From NCBI GenBank assembly GCA_021513715.1, contig CP084167.1, positions 2,208,001 through 2,272,000 of the forward strand: a stretch of 64,000 nt of DNA, given 5' to 3'. The notes under the pieces were generated by a model that was given only the letters and a program-made list of their open reading frames with translations, was not told the DNA's origin and ran no database searches. This stretch comes from Candidatus Heimdallarchaeum endolithica (GTDB lineage Archaea; Asgardarchaeota; Heimdallarchaeia; Heimdallarchaeales; Heimdallarchaeaceae). A program made the translations under genes and the position numbers. This document shows, piece after piece, positions 24,401 to 49,030 of this stretch. Each line of letters starts with the position of its first letter. Within the stretch, counting starts at the first letter, position 1.

Positions 24401-27400
24401 AGTTTACCATCCCATAATCTTTGTAACCCACTCGTTGGCTCTAAATAGGGATATAATTTCTTTTCCCATGTGTTAAACGTATCATCATAATTTACAGCTC
24501 CTCCCCCGAAATCTACTGCAAAAGTATCCCAATATTCTAATCTATTAACAGCATAAAGAGCGTTTTTTGTATATTCATCTATAGAAGTTGATGAAAAATC
24601 CCAAGAAAAGAATCTTGGTGTTCCTGAAACATTAAGAATAAAATGACTATTAATTACAGGAAACTCTTTATAATTTCCAAGATCTATAGAATATTCTTCA
24701 TATTGTATATTTGCACGTTTAAGGATCTTGGGATTTTCTAAAATATCAGGAACCGAATACCAATTAGGTAAAGCATTACTTCCTTGTCCTCCATAATAAT
24801 AAAATTGTTCTGTATTTCCCGCTCCATCGATACATTCTATATAGTAAGTTGTCACAGAACCTAACCCTTCTGTTTCAACAGTAAATGTTTGAGAGAAGGT
24901 GTGCACTCCATCTGTTAAATCAGAGTCTATCAACTCCACAAAACCACTATTTATACCGTTCTTCCAATATAGAATTGCAGAAATAGGTGTGGTGTCTTCA
25001 TCTACTGTTATTGTCACTGTAGCGTTATAAGGTCCTGTGGGATAGGTTTCAAAGTCGGTATTCGTTATCAGATCTCCTCCTGTAAGTATAGGATTAGTTA
25101 TGTCTCGAATACGAACAGCTGTAGGAATGACTTTGGTCATGTAGTTTCCATAAACATCACTTGCAGAAATGGTGAAACGTAATTCATCGTTATTTGACCA
25201 ATATGAAGCTTGAGGGATAATGAAAGTATAATAGGTAATATAACCGTCATAATGTGTTTTTGCCCAATCAATTATTGCAATATCATCATCTACATTTGTT
25301 ATGGCTGTACTTAACTCTCCGTTATCTGGATCAATATAACTATAAGGAGTGAACTCATAGTGATGATACTGTAGAGAAACAGAATGAATGTTACTTGCGT
25401 CATAAATCCCAAAAGTTACTTCTCCATTTTTTTTAGTGCTAATAAAATGAACAATTTGACCTTTATACTCATCTTCATTTTCGATCTTGAATAAAGTATC
25501 CGTATGGTCATAATTTTCTATTTCTACAATTTTTGGTTTAACATGGTCTAATAATTGTACATCTTGAGTGGAAGTAGAAAAAACATTTCCTACCCAATCA
25601 GCAACAACAACATAGTAGTGTAAAGTTCCAGAGTGATTGAAAAACCCAAATGAAGGAGTAGTAATAGTGTCATTTGTTATAGGAGTAACAGAATCATAAT
25701 TTGTATATTCGTAGGTGAATTTTTCTCCAGTATCTAAATACCAGAAGAATTGGACATAAGCTATTCCACTATCCACATCTTCAACAGTAACAGTTATGGT
25801 AGCTGTTTCATTATATTCCATTGAAGTAAAAGTACTGAGAATTATAGCATTAGGCTTATTATATTCTTCTACAAAAATAGTGTAACTGTTACTTATCCCC
25901 AAATTCTCATATGAGTCTAGTGCTGTGAACCAATAAGTGATTAAATCTCTATATTTTAACAAATTTTCAATATTATAATCGAAATAATATACACTTGTTA
26001 TTTCATCTTTATAACAATCTGCTATCTGTTCTGATAAATACTCATAATATGTCCCATCTGTTACATTATATCTATCTATTTTATAATGTACTTGGATATT
26101 GAAAACGTTAGTAGTATCATGTATAGCTGAACTAAACCTTATATTTTTATCGTTTATATCTATCCCAAATATTTTAGCTACATCAAATGTAGGTGCAACT
26201 CCATCTATTACAAGAATACTGTTATTTTCTTTTGGTTCATATGAAACATAGTTTCTTCCATCACTTGCTTTGATAATATAATGTAAATCCACACCTACTT
26301 TTACAGGTTGATGAGAACCATAATAATAAACAAAATCGTGATCTAATCTTTTATCGTATTTATTATTATTCGTTCCTCTTTGGTATAAACGTATAGAATC
26401 TATAATAATTGTATCATTGAAATGGAAAACTTCTCCAATAGGCTCGATTTTTATATAAAACTTGTTTATGATACTTTTTGTTACATCAAAATTATAAAGA
26501 CATGAAGTAGTTTGATTAGTTGATATATCTACATCTAGGTTATATGACGAGTTATAACAATAGTTATTATATCCTTCATCTATATATTCCCAGAATATGC
26601 TATCTGTTTTATTGAATTCTGTATATAATCCTGTAATTCTAAAACTTTTTCCGCTGTCTGTCCTGCTATTTATTACAAACTGATTCCATTTAGAGAGAGA
26701 GACAGGTTTTTCAGTTATTACTTCTATCCATGCTTCTGATAAATTATTATTTAAAAAGAGTTTTAATTTACTATTTCCCTCTTCTTCTATTTCTTGTATA
26801 TAACTAAAATACGAAGAACTCAATCTTAACCCATCATATATTATAGAACCATAATTTGATAAATTAAGATTGATAGAATTAAGCTCCTCAAAACTTATCC
26901 CATCATCGCCGTATTGATAATATTGGAAGTATTCTGTATCATCTCTCAGAAGTTGATACCCAGCTAAATAGTCATCATAAAAATAAGCTGTTGCACTTAC
27001 TGTTTTAAAATTATCTTGTATAGCTACTTTGATATTTACTTCATCTGTTTCTTTTACACTAGTTTTTGGTGTAATCTTAAAATTACTTAACTGTAATCCA
27101 CTAATTCCGCCAGAATAAAATCCAATTTTTCCATTAAGTATTAAAGGTGAATATTTTTCTAAATCCAATATTTTTGAATTTCCATTTAAAATTGATACTT
27201 TCAATAAATCATTATATATCGATCCATTGAGCGTATACTTCAAACTATTATCCCTAACCCAATCAACACTTTCCAATAGAGTTAGTGTATGATTATAAAC
27301 ATAAAATAATTGTAATTTATCTACAGATTGTATATCTCCTGAATAACCTACTTGATCCAGTGTTACAATGGAATTTGTATGCGCCAATAAATAATATTCA

Positions 27401-28911
27401 GGAATACCATCTGTTTTTCTATATTTGAATATTAGACCAAACATTCCATCTGATGTAGGTTTAATATCTATATTGAAATCAAAATCGTCATATGTATGAT
27501 TCACTGTAGATGATAAAATGCAATAATCCCAATCATCATTATTAACAGTTAGTATACCATTTTCATAATACCAATCATCAATTGAATGCGTTCCAACACT
27601 ACTAGTATCTACATTGGTATATTCCCATTCTGTAAATGGTAAAGGAGAACTATTAGAAAGAGATGAAAAATCATATTCTTGTCCCAATTGTGTCCATGGA
27701 CTATATTCAGTAGAAAGAACTTCTGGTTCACTATTATCATTAATACTTATTTCCTTAATGAAGGATTCTTCTCTTGTTTGAGTATTATTGATAAATCCAT
27801 TAGAATCATAGTTTATTATTTGATAACGGATGAGTAAAGAAACTGTAGCTTTTCCTGGATAAACAATAGGTTGTGTGGTTGTTCCATTGAAATAATATTT
27901 TTGCTTTGTAGATTCAACTATCGGAACGTTGTAAATATACTGTTCAAAAGGAGTGTTCTCATTTATTGAAAAATTGGCATAAACTGCTGATATCTTTATA
28001 TCTGTTCCATTAACTGGCCCATCTGCACCAGGAAGAACAGTGGAATAATATGAATCTTCTCTGTAGAGGATTCTGCAACTGATGGAGATATTTTCATCAA
28101 TAGAAGGATAATAAGGAATAGTACGAAACTCTTCTAAATACGGTTTATCTTCTATTACTGGAATATAAAGGTGTTTACTTTCTCCTTCTTGTCCATAACT
28201 ATCTGTTGCATTAAACCATATTTCATAAGTATCCCCTTCATTGAATTTACTTTTATCTGCAGAAAAAGTAAAAGTAAAATTGTTTTCACCAATTTTTGTT
28301 GCTCTCCCCTCTAAAATTATTTCATTATTTATTTTTGATACCGCATCTACTTTCTCACTCCCATCATCCTCTAATCCATCTTCATCATAAACATTAAAAT
28401 TGATTGTTTTAGATTCTCCACCTATTATAAAAAATTCAGGAATATTTTCAGGAGGAATATAGATCTCTGGTGAACCATCTGCTACAACAGTATAATCATA
28501 GATTAACGATTGAGCATAATTGTGATTAGTTGTTGAATCATTAACTTCAATGAAATATCTTACATTAGTATTTGGTTTATATTTGCCTAAACTAACTGCA
28601 TAGGTTTCTATCCTTGTGTCATTGCTAAAAGGAGTAAAAACATATTCCATTTCTTTTTTATATTCCACTCCATCTACAAAATAGATCAAGTATATTTCTC
28701 CTATTCCCGTCTCATCTTTAACGGTAGTAACAACAGTTACTCCCTCGAACTGGTTAGGTATATGTGGAAAATGGTAAACTTTCAGAAATTCAGGAGGAGA
28801 AGTGTCTACAATCTCCCCCTTCACAAGATCCAATCCATTCAAAGAAGAGATAAGAAAAAGAATAATAGTTACAAAAGTTAAATACTTTATTTTTTTATTT
28901 TTCTTCTTCAA
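15484..28911 (-). CDS. Giant (4,475 aa) membrane-anchored surface protein with many Ig-like repeats and a LamG/DUF1080-like jelly-roll segment
   Basis: N-terminal basic plus hydrophobic signal. Recurring D-x-x-P-P linkers and Y/F-x-x-x-A-x-D-x-x-G-N domain ends are typical of bacterial/archaeal Ig-like domains. DFDFNIDIK...GMFGLIFKY...GKIGFYS resembles a concanavalin-like fold. C-terminal TM helix (LLLPLLVSGSLLLVTITLIII) with a basic tail. TTG start behind GGAGG. Confidence 0.88.
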   Translation of the reverse strand: MKKKNKKIKYLTFVTIILFLISSLNGLDLVKGEIVDTSPPEFLKVYHFPHIPNQFEGVTVVTTVKDETGIGEIYLIYFVDGVEYKKEMEYVFTPFSNDTRIETYAVSLGKYKPNTNVRYFIEVNDSTTNHNYAQSLIYDYTVVADGSPEIYIPPENIPEFFIIGGESKTINFNVYDEDGLEDDGSEKVDAVSKINNEIILEGRATKIGENNFTFTFSADKSKFNEGDTYEIWFNATDSYGQEGESKHLYIPVIEDKPYLEEFRTIPYYPSIDENISISCRILYREDSYYSTVLPGADGPVNGTDIKISAVYANFSINENTPFEQYIYNVPIVESTKQKYYFNGTTTQPIVYPGKATVSLLIRYQIINYDSNGFINNTQTREESFIKEISINDNSEPEVLSTEYSPWTQLGQEYDFSSLSNSSPLPFTEWEYTNVDTSSVGTHSIDDWYYENGILTVNNDDWDYCILSSTVNHTYDDFDFNIDIKPTSDGMFGLIFKYRKTDGIPEYYLLAHTNSIVTLDQVGYSGDIQSVDKLQLFYVYNHTLTLLESVDWVRDNSLKYTLNGSIYNDLLKVSILNGNSKILDLEKYSPLILNGKIGFYSGGISGLQLSNFKITPKTSVKETDEVNIKVAIQDNFKTVSATAYFYDDYLAGYQLLRDDTEYFQYYQYGDDGISFEELNSINLNLSNYGSIIYDGLRLSSSYFSYIQEIEEEGNSKLKLFLNNNLSEAWIEVITEKPVSLSKWNQFVINSRTDSGKSFRITGLYTEFNKTDSIFWEYIDEGYNNYCYNSSYNLDVDISTNQTTSCLYNFDVTKSIINKFYIKIEPIGEVFHFNDTIIIDSIRLYQRGTNNNKYDKRLDHDFVYYYGSHQPVKVGVDLHYIIKASDGRNYVSYEPKENNSILVIDGVAPTFDVAKIFGIDINDKNIRFSSAIHDTTNVFNIQVHYKIDRYNVTDGTYYEYLSEQIADCYKDEITSVYYFDYNIENLLKYRDLITYWFTALDSYENLGISNSYTIFVEEYNKPNAIILSTFTSMEYNETATITVTVEDVDSGIAYVQFFWYLDTGEKFTYEYTNYDSVTPITNDTITTPSFGFFNHSGTLHYYVVVADWVGNVFSTSTQDVQLLDHVKPKIVEIENYDHTDTLFKIENEDEYKGQIVHFISTKKNGEVTFGIYDASNIHSVSLQYHHYEFTPYSYIDPDNGELSTAITNVDDDIAIIDWAKTHYDGYITYYTFIIPQASYWSNNDELRFTISASDVYGNYMTKVIPTAVRIRDITNPILTGGDLITNTDFETYPTGPYNATVTITVDEDTTPISAILYWKNGINSGFVELIDSDLTDGVHTFSQTFTVETEGLGSVTTYYIECIDGAGNTEQFYYYGGQGSNALPNWYSVPDILENPKILKRANIQYEEYSIDLGNYKEFPVINSHFILNVSGTPRFFSWDFSSTSIDEYTKNALYAVNRLEYWDTFAVDFGGGAVNYDDTFNTWEKKLYPYLEPTSGLQRLWDGKLHLKYELNVTSENEPLFTSKPVHYLKIPLNLYHNFVDTIIDFDTNTIEKIQLWAVKPTNNVYPYTFNLSAPISLPYNSYESVASGYYTHPGLIKMGINGNYEYRDIIVEVVPKTEYNETSGLWSFVQDGDSKYNYYLDVYNIRNYGIFYSIDQSAHQDFDDFQNLYRFIHDKGTEYYTSTEIDQFLANVTEELSINPEITKWNYIAIKETKDTTESSRNRLLPCLYVDEDKNLRTFAYPEDSPFDKTLPRRIALLFSLPTFVNFRNGYYNPLYFASKFSIDYQGSLMLQFYETNISDYQAYSGPQFEQPYLDLMSHYSESWFEPFPTNPLSIHYKLKEMVCDAYDVYYESLTPSEKLLIDSGNSTMPPMDYLSSITWSNSTIIDTYNKNRYSWMFITFDEFNHFEIKDMSFSALYGKIYDDFYKRTGDLLKPLYEWVDPSVPEYVYPELHEKLYFDFVDFFIKPNNKQIINDYYFDTECNAPVIDIDLNDLVNLPEGLDFEIILNSSRTDYSTENYFLNELSSYYSTTVQDFKEQHNIWRELISETKISWVNNTEYFYNGTLIQTNIIIELLNDYNNLIHRSISVNPNTIDWYIFDNEKSVSTASSYSNLHYHISATKNVDNNGTGYILFQLPQYYEGWMKKSESPFSNNLSYSYSTRYNRHSYSTMLTTNYITLQTNDFEETNNIPYILSDRISDLVIDAELNYTTSTNISYIYVDEIYATSTNGTELLVFKYNESDDITLYSIKHYRTLLSIPLSWGSDENYTYGEDNSQYYMMVKNFKIVFKINSTVVQSSYNFKVSFYDLRLDVDSSEIPRIIVVDDFSPPQIDCWIDYPRMPDSRDYIRADDTTWYFEIGLTDISGAELKSVKYYIYTQKYDHFNEKYIESPILADLGIINEGYTFSITPSVTVNDFVLDENGHWIQTYASYIAIEIKASDLSYYNNEQVKTIYFNVTDSVQPRLYTSYTYSDYLHGEPGSLGNEIPYDSALDEISVLVNDRNDISSVNLEINVDRFDISPDFELVSITDLHLELEEIGGEPVKYYVSGSAYKKYKNSSVNIYELLKSKYNSIAPEHVQFRYIVEDVYGNSISSQYYDIYYKDTYGPEVTWLTLQGEAGGEPDPNVGDLVLSAKVRDAAYEDDINSNNGNLTVFALIDLFVQETVWLWDDLNYFFVPSISLVGEGNTGSPGRYIFGDWATKIDLFLLECKAITIEEIDNGIYDHVLYYDITLIAGTNDEFIDYWDNSLGSRVDIPEGTGPDSVSEVKATDRFGNEGTVNSMNIVLADNRLEWSSTPQIISGHKLEGVENAIHGFHNLKVKLLNDPSSNLPFIEHYNGAFPVDLYKRVSVWAGEDWNEIINEVAYPNVIEGTECIFEVDHIGDSRINVGDKVKLEIFAKQTIEVDDGQGGIVYVDLYSKDPFELEFKITDKYAPEIANFHPESIPNFINGTNISFYVIEDIALLDTSNTIIGIWSDLSDFTTQQNELFPQLSITKVNNTHYFVETTVNASLWHEILDDNSKYAVHITIDDGVNILNTTIRKYITDAQGPSLSLFLNDPSSDSRYDFDTNIKILATDDNVIGENDVHFKYQDYTGLWSDWGVATFIQGIDNIYTFSFIIPKGSHPTPMILNIIVKASDIHGYETITSKSFDLVDKRAPDYKTNIPTGVGILFNPIVAGANDIQEPYDPSIAITYQGKTHIVILATDISGINLCSSVVEIQFSTDGSNWGSIYSFSIGICADFDLDDYNSTGQWVERYWKAYDITIEASLFDSADFIVGNYIRIRPKIVDINDNVQTQYYYDTQIKDGSPSLLSVHLTNPVVTEGGEVDYYNPPKVTVDLSTPYTFEYITVYLRRSSDNVLFSSSTFDTFNPSTGLYEGDFPQLDLSYVGINFYIDVYVYCSILDGYDENTKSNNKLIINSVSGEGTNNPLSFLITEYLPPLADEIDAQIVVYQDTSQIKIPVYDDTTTLTSTNVVSIKYDDVSQPTQDMSYSGTVVGTEPHPTNSSWQMIVANIDGSIFNIGDKVALAITLQDNCGNTATYRLDNNDDINDDTGLGYRINQASPTVTITSSYSNNEINYASDIDITFSVQHEDGDYNTQYRYSIESGSYTEWTSATGSSGTYSFTIPKTEYRIDEYINIEVRASDETGTYFGTDSVSLHAVDKEPPSGIVFKESPDGAVKDVGEDLSFDCKISDEITPYPYMDYQYRYKNENDDWTTWQTDGTLLEDNYYSITIPGQITTGTYIVEVKGTDEAGNSATYSFDYIVSDKTPPTIDFTPPNGVSNNEAYDLKISYFISDNYVNIEPSMVTFSYKENGEGTAHYRTVHSGSLEDEFYSYIDNAILNYEDTFSITITASDGINLVEITDSFTVSVDATNPSGSNPSVDDSTPVYGSTIELSINVFDDGGVSTLYTKYKCYYKHPGESSFTNYVYGTITTTPEDTKTPTFTLSNLKWYSGAWDVKFTYTDAHGHSGSYTWNDAFTVIDNIKPSVTKPISSSGNTIDVGHSTYIRADFSDLSSLASGLDLAGTPPNRVCYIKHKDPSGNWVYHSISHYSGNTYQVYFVPDSSYSGKLIEWRAVAYDKAGNVQTSSAFYLQVNEVHYAPSIISVWAYGYNDRTMNDLFYARVHAKCSTDNINYIQIRYGPTTSSYTTTSSGISRYSGTARDGYWQKQLTGGDRIGERVYFKYRVRNDYGQYSSWSSWKYVEYKGLFGAMDLELKVEEIEFNESRKTLTVKFNKAFASENYRPFIILKVDQYTTRKLILTPLDEEGKTYILPLSSLIDSYEIDTLEYMFTIENWFGRIWSSEDYSLYISDLTKPKIVKVVYADYYSVGEQITINAKIVDKNIKEIKILFLSPTEKGWKVIKTKNMKEMLSSFFLIGFKAKNSPGYYIQIIARDKNLNEQVSEIYRIIVNLSSSQKYSLLLPLLVSGSLLLVTITLIIIKKPKLLLKAKFFLTSNWSTLSQTRGRKFSHFFKSFGGKK

Positions 28912-44544: not shown

Positions 44545-45843
44545 TTAATCAGAGATAATTCTGTTGTATTCATTTTCATTTCTATTTTCTTTTTTTGTAG
44601 CATCAATGATTACCTTAATACTTGTATCATCATTTTTATTTCGAGAAGGATCTAAAGATGAACCTCTTATATTATCTATTATAATAATATCTCCGGAACC
44701 TGCTCTTGTTATTGTTGCCCATTCCACGCTTGAGGGATTATTTACATCAATATCTTCATTGACTACTGTGCACCATTTTAATGATGGATGAGCTGCAAAA
44801 GCAGCTAAAGCTACATTTTTTGCGTCTCCTGTTTTTCTTTGTGTAATAGAAATAACTGCATGTAACCATCCGCATCCTCCTGATGTTAAAACTAAATCAT
44901 GAACTTCTGGGACTATCTTCTTAACATATGAGTATATAGCAGCTTCTTTTGGGAACCCCATCAGAAGATAATGTTCTTCATGAGCTGGTAATATTGTTTG
45001 AAAAACCGCATTTTTTCTGTGATATAGCTTTTTGAATCTTATTACAGGTTGAATTCTTTTTGTATCTAAAGTTCCTGTAATATCTACAAAAGGTCCTTCT
45101 TCCTCTGTTTCATCTGCAATTATCTCTCCTTCAATTACAAACTCAACATCTACAGGAACATCAATTCCAAAAATTGGTGTTCTGATAACCTTTATTCCGT
45201 TTTCTAATAAAGTATTTGCAACAGAAAGTTCACTTTCTCCATATTTAAGAGGTGTTGATGCTGCTAGAGCAATTAATGGATGATAACCAATAATTAGTGC
45301 AATTGGTGTATTTCTCCCATTTTTACGATTTGAATGAAATATTTGATACAAATCACGTGGTACCAAGCGAATAATTCCTTCATTTTTTGATAAAATCATG
45401 ATTCTATGTATACTAGCATTGACTTTGCCTGTCTCTGGGTTTTTTGCGATAACAATGGCAGAGGTTAAATACCTTCCACCATCTTTCGGAAAAAATTTAG
45501 GGATAGGTAGCTGGTTAAAGTCGACTTCAGTTTCAACTTCAAAACTTGTTGAAAAGTCAGTTTCTTCGGGATATTTTGCTTTTGTAGACGCATTATTGAG
45601 TTTTTCATACATTTCCTTTTTATTTGATTTTAATAATAGATTAAACCAGCTTCTTGATTGTAATAAATTTCCAATTAATGGGTATTTTGTATTTTTCACT
45701 TTTTTAAAAAGAATTGCGCTATTACTATACTCCTTCATGAGTTTGGCAATTTCTAAATTTGAATCAACAGTATCATCAATTATGGTTAAAAGTTTTCTTT
45801 TTTCTAATTCATTGATATATCCTCTAAGACTCACTTTAAACAC
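44545..45843 (-). CDS. UbiD family decarboxylase
   Basis: DGGRYLT, NASIHR, EEGPFVD, GGCGWLHAVISI, VEWATITR, GSSLDPS. Confidence 0.93.
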   Translation of the reverse strand: MFKVSLRGYINELEKRKLLTIIDDTVDSNLEIAKLMKEYSNSAILFKKVKNTKYPLIGNLLQSRSWFNLLLKSNKKEMYEKLNNASTKAKYPEETDFSTSFEVETEVDFNQLPIPKFFPKDGGRYLTSAIVIAKNPETGKVNASIHRIMILSKNEGIIRLVPRDLYQIFHSNRKNGRNTPIALIIGYHPLIALAASTPLKYGESELSVANTLLENGIKVIRTPIFGIDVPVDVEFVIEGEIIADETEEEGPFVDITGTLDTKRIQPVIRFKKLYHRKNAVFQTILPAHEEHYLLMGFPKEAAIYSYVKKIVPEVHDLVLTSGGCGWLHAVISITQRKTGDAKNVALAAFAAHPSLKWCTVVNEDIDVNNPSSVEWATITRAGSGDIIIIDNIRGSSLDPSRNKNDDTSIKVIIDATKKENRNENEYNRIISD

Positions 45844-46060
45844 TCATTTTGTTTTAATAAAAGATGTAAATAAACCTTTTAATTGTTCCTTATTATTCCT
45901 TGATTTTTTTTCTATTTATAATGATTTCATTTAATGTTGATAGTATATCGTCAAAAATATAAATATTTTCAATGTTTAAGGAAACAAGAACCATTTTCCC
46001 AGTTATTTTGGAAAATCTCTCTCCTATGATTCTTACAAATTGTTCGTTTTTCATTCCATA

Positions 46061-47845
46061 ATTTACTTTTTGCGTAATTTTGCGAACATTAGGATAGAGA
46101 GTATGGATGAAAAAGAAAAAAAGGAAAAGAAGAGGAAAAAAGATGGAGAAGATAGTCAAAACTTTGAAAGTAAAAATAAAAAATGAAGTTTTGACGAGGA
46201 GAAAAAAGGAAAGATTAAGAAGAATAACAGGGAGAGACACAAGGATAATAGAAAATATGTAAAAATTATTCATCACAACAGAAGAAGACTGTGTATGAAA
46301 ACAAAGAAAGGAGAAATAAGAGTACATAGAGGAAAACTAGATGAACTAACATTGACAACATCAAGGCTAAAAAAAGTAGAAGAGAGACTGTTCCTCATGA
46401 CCTTAAAAAGATGTTCCCTTACTGTTCTCACGATGAGTTTCAAGAGTGTAGAGACATAGCAGTACAACTGTACGAGCAAGGATATAGACCTGAAGCCACT
46501 CGTCCTCCAAAAAAGAGACCCAGAAGACAACTAATCAATAAGAATAGGTTTATTCTTACTAATTTGCCAAAAGAGAAAAACAACTCCATTTCTCGTTGGT
46601 GGGTAGGAATAAGAGACTCATTAGACACGTGGAAAAGAAAGACAAGGTATCATCAACGATTATGGTTGCCTTTAGAGATGAGCACTTTTCATCAAAAAGA
46701 ATTGAAAAAAGGACAAATAAAAAGTTTAGAACTGAGATATAAACGTTCTACAAGTGAGTGGTGGGTGTATTTTCAATTAGAAGTTCTTCCTCCTTCTTCT
46801 TTTCCTTGTCCAGTTGATAATTCTTCTTCTCTTCCTCCAGCTGTACTGGGGATAGATCTAGGGATAAACATTCCTGCTGCAGGAGTGTTATTAACGCCCA
46901 AAAGGAAATTAACTATTAAAGAGATAAAATTCTGGCATACCAAACAGTGGAATAGAATCAATCATAGATATAAACTCAAGCTTTCCCGTCTTCAGAGGAA
47001 AGGGGCTTTAAATGACCAGTCGGGTAAAAAACACCAAATTTATCGTTTTCTTGGATATCTTCGTCGGAGATATAGAAACGTTAAACGGTCCTATATTCAC
47101 CAATTTGTAAGAGATGTTGTGCAGACGATAGAGACCTATGCTCAAATGTATGACTTTTTCGTCGTCGTAGGTTACCCCAAAAATGTTAGAAAAGGAAAAG
47201 GAAAAGAAAAAGGGAAAGAAAAAAGTACTCGTTATTTTCGTAGAAAACTTCACCAGTGGAATTATGCTCTTGTTCTTTCTCTTCTCCGTCGAGCACTTAT
47301 ACTTCGAGGTTTTGCTCCTCATCGTATTCTTATAATAGACGAAAGAGGAACATCTTCTCATTGTTCCCGTTGTGGAAAAGAAGTTTCTCGTCCCGTTAGA
47401 GGATTAGTACACTGTCCCTTTTGTAACTATACTTACCACTCTGATTTAACAGGGGCTAGAAATATTGCTCGTAAGTTCCTTAGTCATCTTTTTCGTCCCC
47501 GTGCTACAACTATTGCTGATTACTTTACTGGTCAAAAATTCAGTCTTACTCATTACACTGTTTGCCGAGGACTCAGCCATTGGTTGTAGTCCCAGTAGAC
47601 AAAAAGAAATAATTACTCTTATATTCAAGGGCTAGTTATTCTTTCATTTTTGTCTCTCGTGGAGTGAAGAAAAGAGCTTACAACTCTTTTTTTCTTTATG
47701 ATTCCCCCGATTCGTGTATGACGTCTGTCTTAATCTCCTTCTTCTTTCATTGTATGTTAGGATTAAGTTCTCAAGAAACTGACAATTATCTCTTATTGTT
47801 TTTTTCTTGAAAGACTGAGTTCGACAAACTTCGCAAAAAGTAAAT
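46061..47845 (+). mobile_element. Non-autonomous TnpB element with imperfect terminal inverted repeats
   Basis: Left end ATTTACTTTTTGCGtaaTTTtgCGAAC versus right end (reverse complement) ATTTACTTTTTGCGaagTTTgtCGAAC. Flanks are CATA and CATG. Removal restores the host reading frame. Confidence 0.88.
46143..47589 (+). pseudogene. tnpB: TnpB RNA-guided nuclease; N-terminus broken by two frameshifts
   Basis: MEKIVKTLKVKI start at 46143, with frameshifts near 46255 and 46385 leading into the 46411 ORF. LGIDLGI, IDERGTSSHCSRC, CPFC, HSDLTGARNIA. Confidence 0.85.
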
Positions 47846-47865
47846 CATGTAAAAGGCTAGTTGAA
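47590..47865 (+). ncRNA. Putative omegaRNA (TnpB guide scaffold plus flank-derived guide)
   Basis: Non-coding stretch between the tnpB stop and the right end, conserved in the second copy at ~59898-60078. Its position matches TnpB right-end RNAs. Boundaries approximate. Confidence 0.55.
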
Positions 47866-48017
47866 GAAGAAAAATCGATTGGAGGGTATGATAAGCCTAT
47901 AGTACCTAATTTCGGTGATTTTTCTGATATAAAAATAGATATTCCATTATCAAAAAAAATTACTGAAAGAAAAAATAAATTATCTTTTATTTCAACATCT
48001 TTGTTTACTATTTCTAG

Positions 48018-49030
48018 AAGCATGTCCAAAAATTAATTTTTATTGATATGGGGGTTTATGTCGGAATTATCACACATTTCCAGATTTTAGACTCCCACAA
48101 AGTAAGAAAATTCACAGTCATTAATGGACCTTTCCTTAAGAAACTGGTGAAAGTGGAACCGAGAGAAAGTAAGAGAGGGAGAAAGAGAATAGCAGAAAGG
48201 TGGGTAATATTAGCAATAGCAATCATTGCTAGAATAGAAGGGATAGCTTGGAGGAAGTTAGAAGAAAAGTTGTCTCTATGCGCTTTTTTGATAGAAGAGG
48301 GGTGGATGAGGAAGATTCCTTCTAAATCCACTTTTCATGCTGTGTGGAGAGCGACAGAAAGTAAAATCTTAGAGCAGTGGATAATAGAGTTGGGGAGAGA
48401 AATAGTGAGAAAAAAAGGGTTGAAAGCTATGTCGGTGGGCAGTTCAGGTTTTAAAATTCGTCAAGCTTCTGTTTTGCGTTTTCTCAAATGGTCAAGAGAG
48501 ACACTAAAGAAAACCTCCCAACTAAACTTTTCTGGAAGATACACCTTATAGTTGGTTTACCCTCCAGAGCTATAGTCTCTCTAGCTCATTCTGCTAGTAA
48601 CACTCACGATAGTAAAGTCTTCGGTTTGCTATGGCAGAAACTTCCTTCTGTACTCTTGAGACCTTTCTTGAGATTCTATGGTGACTGTGCCTACTGGATA
48701 GAAAATATCGTCGGTCTTCTTAGACAACATTCCTTTTTTCCCTGTTATTTGTTATTCCCCCAAAAAGTAATGTTCGTTATCCCTCTCCTCCTCTCTGACC
48801 AATAGTTCAAGCTCATCTTCTCTACCCTTGTCTCTATCGCCATAATCATCACCCCGAGTATCGTAGTACTATTGAACACGTCTTTGGTCTCCTCAAACTC
48901 TCTCTTCTCCCATCCTTGATCGTTTACCCTCCACCATCCTCTCTACTCTTTTTAGTTTTCTCCTCTGTTACAACTACCTTTTACTCCTTCGTACCGTTTA
49001 GTAGGCGAAAAAGAATTTTTGGACATGCTT
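48018..49030 (+). mobile_element. IS5-like insertion sequence, 1,013 bp
   Basis: Perfect 17-bp TIR AAGCATGTCCAAAAATT (48018-48034 / 49014-49030) and 7-bp TSD TTTCTAG (48011-48017 / 49031-49037). Family call from the transposase motifs. Confidence 0.92.
48048..49001 (+). pseudogene. DDE transposase, frameshifted
   Basis: Fragments in several frames: IPSKSTF, SVGSSGF (first Asp replaced by Gly), WKIHL, HDS, YGDCAY, RSTIEHVFGLLK. Confidence 0.85.

Follow-up and report, generated by a model that had tools for sequence, protein, structure and literature searches.

Relocation of the RuvC-II glutamate, with Gly in its place, has been described for a whole major clade of TnpB proteins and for several other branches (PMC10691335), some of them nearly all archaeal, and a relocated Glu is also present in TvTnpB, an IS605 protein of Thermoplasma (PMC10530073). 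Pro-Fanzors are defined by such a relocated Glu in addition to a DPG motif (Yoon 2023, PMC10711439). TIR-bounded TnpBs and solo TnpBs are already known in general (PMC10691335). The transposases of IS607 act at a core dinucleotide and are characterized by short inverted binding motifs, a TAM that overlaps the core, and tolerance of mismatched junctions; the core at the left junction is of donor origin and that at the right of target origin, and the elements are described as being without inverted repeats (bioRxiv 2023.11.20.567912).

The window, by which is meant the whole 64,000-nucleotide stretch of Candidatus Heimdallarchaeum endolithica DNA that was analysed, contains at positions 46060-47846 a decayed copy of a multi-copy TnpB mobile element, one of a non-autonomous and recently active kind of insertion element of the Heimdallarchaeaceae. 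Its TnpB belongs to the same clade as those of the aCas1-TnpB loci (Cas1H-Asgard-1/-2; Altae-Tran 2023, PMC10691335; SH-aLRT 99) and likewise has a rearranged RuvC-II, and the right-end motifs are related (GTTCACTCA in the Thorarchaeota aCas1-TnpB loci, AACTCAT/AATCAT in the Heimdall elements). In contrast to those loci of 7-8 kb, however, the window element is 1.8 kb in length, lacks aCas1, has inverted ends with an AT core, and is of a kind dispersed over CATG sites rather than inserted preferentially at tRNA genes. With the RuvC-II-rearranged TnpBs (RIIr branches; TnpB2, TvTnpB) it shares the Glu-to-Gly exchange, a Glu that precedes the Zn finger by six residues, and a D-hydrophobic-G RuvC-I motif, but whereas TvTnpB is part of a hairpin-ended IS605 element of the Y1 type, the window element has neither TnpA nor hairpins.

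Structure, junctions and copies of the element

The host genome is closed (3,326,783 bp); two primers published for Ca. H. endolithica (PMC8813620) match it, and those for H. aukensis do not. The features of the element, in window coordinates, are as follows.

46057..46059, + strand: target-derived C and AT core, predicted TAM (CCAT, possibly CCATG, in this subfamily); from the empty H. aukensis site and insertion junctions
46060..46086, + strand: left end, an imperfect inverted repeat in which two TTTTGCG-like units stand in tandem; from comparison of copies
46109..46110, + strand: site of a 58-bp deletion that has taken the TATA-like box (TTTTTATA) still present in sister copies; from the 12-copy alignment
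46143..47589, + strand: tnpB pseudogene with two frameshifts, 485 aa when intact
46411-47589, + strand: open 392-aa frame with RuvC and Zn finger; from ORF translation
46855..46857, + strand: RuvC-I Asp in GIDLG (DLG, not DPG); invariant in 84 homologs
47170..47172, + strand: Gly in VVVGYP, at the canonical RuvC-II Glu position; invariant in 84 homologs, at the end of strand 339-346 of the model
47341..47343, + strand: relocated Glu in IDERGTSSHC (E-x6-CxxC); invariant in 84 homologs, after strand 395-399 of the model
47443..47445, + strand: RuvC-III Asp in HSDLTG; invariant in 84 homologs
47590..47846, + strand: non-coding 3' region conserved between copies and predicted to form the omegaRNA scaffold, continuous with the right end; from the consensus fold of 10 copies
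47820..47846, + strand: right end, inverted repeat terminating in AAAAAGTAAATC; from comparison of copies
47847..47869, + strand: second AT core and right flank, predicted guide; conservation between copies stops here

An initial annotation of this DNA had proposed imperfect inverted ends of approximately 27 nt and the absence of a TnpA, and both were borne out: 22 of the 27 nt match, a value reached by none of 200,000 random genomic pairs at equal spacing, and no transposase is encoded within the element. While the ends it recognized stand, its exact limits shift if AT is read as the core, in which case the element extends one base further outward on each side, to 46060 and 47846. The left end of the window copy begins with A, as opposed to G in most copies; an initial A is seen again in MITEs none of which is the nearest relative of another. 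The true start of tnpB is at 46143, and both frameshifts, a 1-bp loss near 46252 and a 7-bp loss near 46378, lie in the 5' part of the gene. A sigma-70 promoter scan was disregarded as inapplicable to archaea. Upstream, a UbiD-family decarboxylase-like gene occupies 44545-45843 on the minus strand, with the element in the intergenic region beyond its start, and 170 bp downstream is a frameshifted IS5-like element (48020-49028; ends GCATGTCCAAAAA; about 26 copies), the ends of which are unrelated to those of the TnpB element.

The site in H. aukensis that matches the window is empty and reads TTC-CATG-TAAAAGG; the window junctions are CATA on the left and CATG on the right. At a second locus (L013) the empty site is CATA and the left junction CATG, and at a third (L015) the junctions are GAT on the left and CAT on the right. 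Removal of a MITE from the start of the sole Y1 gene of the genome restores ATG CCA TCG. Among 39 insertions, C-A-T precedes the element on the left in every case, AT followed by G is present on the right in 31, and the base after AT is mismatched between the two junctions in eight. CAT is preceded by C in all six copies of the subfamily to which the window element belongs, by A or G in a second subfamily, and by T in all seven cases of family C and MITE-357. Insertion thus occurs at C/AT/G targets, with AT alone present at both junctions; that the C is not duplicated follows from family C and MITE-357, which end in GAT. A 4-bp CATG duplication was ruled out by the empty sites and the eight mismatched junctions. 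Methylation-driven decay of CATG to CATA was also rejected as the origin of the mismatches, given that its mirror, TATG, is absent from the left junctions. The AT fits either a recombination core or a 2-bp duplication, the two being alike in sequence, and on the IS607 model, with its left core of donor and its right core of target origin, a TG core would be an equivalent reading. The earlier prediction, a TAM ending in CAT(A/G) or CA, is supported by the left junctions in the form CAT or CATG.

Twelve full copies, 79-97% identical, are found at unrelated sites in the closed genome, and eight of these retain an unbroken frame of 480-500 aa, among them the copy at genome 2641324-2639484 (minus strand). 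With dN/dS values of 0.13-0.18 between intact copies, tnpB is under purifying selection. At least nine copies are present in H. aukensis at sites other than those of H. endolithica; a copy at 26307-28778 is followed there by a tandem repeat of its own 3' 700 bp. A profile built on 84 homologs has matches in 80 of 301 Asgard genomes. Ends of this type also bound a 504-aa relative (two copies, 99.2% identical), the canonical-Glu 445-aa TnpB of family C (26% identical over 305 aa; a pair 99.2% identical to one another), a third TnpB of 414 aa (genome 597976-599493), and two MITEs of approximately 385 bp (about 19 copies) and 357 bp (about seven copies). The right end carried by MITE-357 is that of family C (80% over 164 nt), and a conserved motif is common to MITE-385 and the 3' region of family A relatives. 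A single end type is common to TnpBs of three distant lineages and to two MITEs that bear a predicted guide RNA, and no transposase is encoded by any of them. This multi-copy mobility, together with the 99% identical copies of related families, marks the element class as recently active.

Elsewhere in the Heimdallarchaeaceae, family A and C elements share these CAT...AT junctions and likewise lack a second gene. In one genus the inverted repeat is only poorly developed, and hence the junction rule holds more widely than the TIR. In all families, near-identical copies have a fixed right end but differ from one another in the outer 7 bp on the left. A HerA-like ATPase upstream of some relatives (L019) was considered as a component and rejected, as it is a flanking host gene hit by insertions.

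The 257 nt past the stop codon adopt a consensus fold of 64 pairs over 10 copies, eight of them with compensatory changes, as would be expected of an omegaRNA; the region had no match in Rfam. By analogy with known TnpB systems, the right flank would supply the guide sequence.

Candidates for the mobilising enzyme

The initial annotation had further proposed that a non-Y1 enzyme mobilises the element in trans. This is likely, as the ends lack hairpins (no ssDNA hairpins were detected, end folds having z values of -0.5 to +2.1) and the sole Y1 gene is disrupted. The transposase sharing these TIRs that it envisaged was found on no element in the genome, and when the genome was searched for longer, autonomous members (up to 12 kb) bounded by ends of the AT-core type, chance or MITE pairs only were returned. 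As the closed genome lacks an evident mobilising enzyme, this would be either a gene of the host or an enzyme that has escaped recognition. The single tyrosine integrase of the host is located at the HeimV1 site, and IS110/IS1111 DEDD recombinases are absent from the host genome and from H. aukensis, being present in three of 31 family genomes.

The reading favoured here, at somewhat short of an even chance, is that the element is moved in trans by IS607-like serine recombination. A dsDNA circle would be excised and then integrated through a dinucleotide core, catalysed by a serine recombinase for which only two candidates were found, S1 (genome 316728-317450) and S2 (405348-406097), stand-alone resolvase-type proteins of 240 and 249 aa that are possibly the mobilising enzyme. 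Intact TnpB, with the right-end omegaRNA, would cut empty donor sites beside a CAT(G) TAM and so retain the element, as IS605 and IS607 TnpBs do. The predicted circle junction is a near-palindrome centred on AT, and a near-palindrome about the core is the layout used by serine recombinases. The element resembles IS607 (serine TnpA, GG core; CboIStron) in the dinucleotide at both junctions, the short overlapping target motif, the short repeated subterminal motifs and the mismatch-tolerant junctions, but its core is AT (or TG) rather than GG, and its ends are clearly inverted, which counts against the reading given the description of IS607 elements.

Both stand-alone recombinases are conserved across the Heimdallarchaeaceae only, S1 having homologs in 26 of 28 host-family genomes and in none of 272 other Asgard genomes. 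This co-occurrence lends weak support, since any family-specific gene would show an equal pattern. S1 and S2 are host-like and lack the N-terminal HTH of IS607 TnpA, no element with these ends carries a recombinase, no TnpB or element ends lie near S1 or S2, and none of the extra serine recombinase copies in relatives adjoins either; the link of S1 and S2 to the element is accordingly circumstantial. An HTH-serine TnpA is not encoded in the element and none was detected in the host genome; no copy has a second gene that could be an IS607 TnpA co-encoded with TnpB, the two resolvase matches lying elsewhere in the genome, and an IS607 TnpA query of viral contigs gave no match. Alternatively, the true enzyme may reside on an element outside the assembly. 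The S1 region (genome 316728-317979) also includes two small conserved genes, of 121 and 149 aa, that precede S1.

An undetected DDE transposase, if it duplicated the 2 bp AT on insertion, would fit the junctions equally well. Such cut-and-paste movement, IS630- or ISL2-like and with the enzyme provided in trans from a divergent gene or an absent element, is considered unlikely, if the least so of the alternatives. The symmetric G...C ends about AT in family A would suit it, several DDE families are active in the host genome, and there is precedent in the DDE-associated TnpBs (DDE-1 to -6, PMC10691335), which have inverted ends and include solo TnpBs moved in trans. Unlike with those systems, no cognate DDE was found here and the ends are common to three distant TnpB lineages: neither IS630 DDE_3 nor DDE_Tnp_4 (ISL2-type) had a match in the closed genome, the resident IS5-like, rve/IS481-like, DDE_1 and IS6-like families have ends that differ from those of the TnpB element, and no larger member was found in the host genome. 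The variable outer 7 bp of the left end, and relatives with hardly any inverted repeat, also argue against this mechanism.

Peel-and-paste transposition by a Y1 enzyme of IS605 type, with CAT as target, TCAT/TGAT as right-end motif and the repeats incidental, is improbable. The invariant C on the left, the variable base on the right and the subfamily-specific base before CAT form a Y1-like asymmetry, and more distant relatives within the clade do sit in IS605 elements with Y1; nevertheless, the ends lack hairpins, AT is followed by G at most right junctions, and the only Y1 tnpA of the host is interrupted at its start by a MITE-385 (genome 925884-925502, minus strand), a member of the same class. 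That disrupted gene sits in an ordinary IS605 with its own GC-rich hairpin ends. The TnpB of this IS605 also has a relocated Glu.

The partner of the sister clade is of another kind. A divergent gene of 1,400-1,900 aa lies upstream of approximately twenty Thorarchaeota-type TnpB loci, and the N-domain of its product, with invariant Glu, His and Asp, has the fold of Cas1 (Z 12.9, rmsd 3.8, 174 aligned), all of the top 12 structural matches being Cas1. This relationship was revealed by the fold search alone, a search of PDB by sequence with the aCas1 profile having missed Cas1. The right ends of these loci carry GTTCACTCA, the motif reported for aCas1-TnpB loci (PMC10691335), and their assignment to the aCas1-TnpB groups of that study is based on this motif and the aCas1 link. 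The gene is present in 44 of 76 genomes of the Thorarchaeota-type family and in three of 11 of one family in the host's order. Between aCas1 and tnpB in the Thorarchaeota-type loci L165 and L197-L216, GAGTTCAAAA is followed by about 21 variable nt and GAGTGAACTC, resembling a repeat unit with one spacer, and several of these elements lie in or adjoin tRNA genes, parts of which are duplicated. Directly upstream of related TnpBs at two other loci (L321 and L322, genomes G050 and G091) is a conserved 185-aa gene, possibly a further mobilising partner.

Casposase-type integration is known for long duplications, not for ones of 2 bp. It is scarcely probable, and slightly less so than Y1 transposition, that a highly diverged aCas1-type integrase moves the window element in trans: the junctions show 2 bp, the same ends are used by unrelated TnpB lineages, and the aCas1 profile found nothing in the host genome, in any of 28 Heimdallarchaeaceae genomes or beside any copy, against which are set the sister position of the TnpBs, the Cas1 fold of the partner and an ACTCA motif common to the right ends. 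The CRISPR Cas1 genes of the host were also rejected as mobilisers; they are inside cas operons, with no element ends.

The TnpB protein and its distance from Fanzors

The RuvC motifs were correctly read in the initial annotation: the Asp residues of RuvC-I (GIDLG) and RuvC-III (HSDLTG) are intact, and Gly replaces the RuvC-II Glu, the alternative being six residues ahead of the first Cys of the Zn finger. The protein is hence a RuvC-II-rearranged TnpB, and the invariance of the Gly, the relocated Glu and both Asp indicates that the intact enzyme is probably active. The spacing of the motifs fits the D-nonP-G pattern (PMC10711439). PF07282 was matched above its cut-off and guided_TnpB below, placing the protein in the TnpB/Cas12f superfamily. 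The structure model (pLDDT 90) best matched AsCas12f (Z 19.9, rmsd 5.4, 374 aligned), ahead of ISDra2 TnpB (Z 17.6) and Fanzor2 (Z 14.9); Fanzor1 was not listed among the fold matches. Profile scores were 78.6 bits for Cas12f and 42.4 for Fanzor2.

The same annotation had taken the Glu relocation as a mark of Fanzor kinship and the family as pro-Fanzor-like, neither of which was supported. Relocation is common among prokaryotic TnpBs, occurring in a major clade, other branches and TvTnpB, and so does not mark Fanzor kin, and DPG was found in none of 171 relatives, all classifiable ones being D-hydrophobic-G. A RuvC tree with SH-aLRT support was built by quick searches from 110 sequences and approximately 260 columns, without Fanzor1 and with 13 rows skipped by a motif filter; DPG proteins of giant viruses were included, as was a protein of pro-Fanzor type from Nostoc. 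The Heimdall proteins grouped with the aCas1-linked Thorarchaeota-type TnpBs (SH-aLRT 99-100) and not with Fanzor2, which formed a separate clade with the giant-virus and Nostoc proteins (100, branch 1.41). A clade of Heimdall proteins and Fanzor2 was rejected (AU p=0.018), while the wider Asgard clade as a distant sister of Fanzor2 gave AU p=0.18 but was not the best tree. Thus, although the relocated Glu and TIR-like ends recall Fanzors, some of which lie in TIR elements, and the wider sisterhood survives the AU test, the view that this is a pro-Fanzor near the source of eukaryotic Fanzors is very improbable in light of its DLG motif, its lack of an IS607 TnpA, its separate branch, and its preference for Cas12f in both profile and fold (compare Pro-Fanzor/Fanzor2 in PMC10711439).

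Significance for the Heimdallarchaeaceae

The element brings no Fanzor origins into the Asgard archaea. What it represents is an active class of TnpB elements with ends typical neither of IS605 nor of classical IS607. Its intact copies would be compact nucleases, for which CAT-type TAMs are predicted that vary between subfamilies (CCAT, RCAT, TCAT). In the literature searched, neither this AT-core class nor a loss of aCas1 from the Heimdallarchaeaceae was found described.

Across the clade, TnpBs occur with Y1, with aCas1 and with neither, so that the partner has changed at least twice; partners have been swapped within one phylum among Y1, aCas1 and a further enzyme. A more comprehensive proposal can be offered tentatively, and as a whole it is doubtful: a transposase-free class of Heimdallarchaeaceae elements would have acquired TnpBs of at least three distant lineages and given rise to guide-RNA MITEs, with host-conserved stand-alone serine recombinases, in place of the aCas1 of Thorarchaeota, driving movement at an AT core. 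If true, this would be an RNA-guided selfish element driven by a domesticated recombinase of its host.
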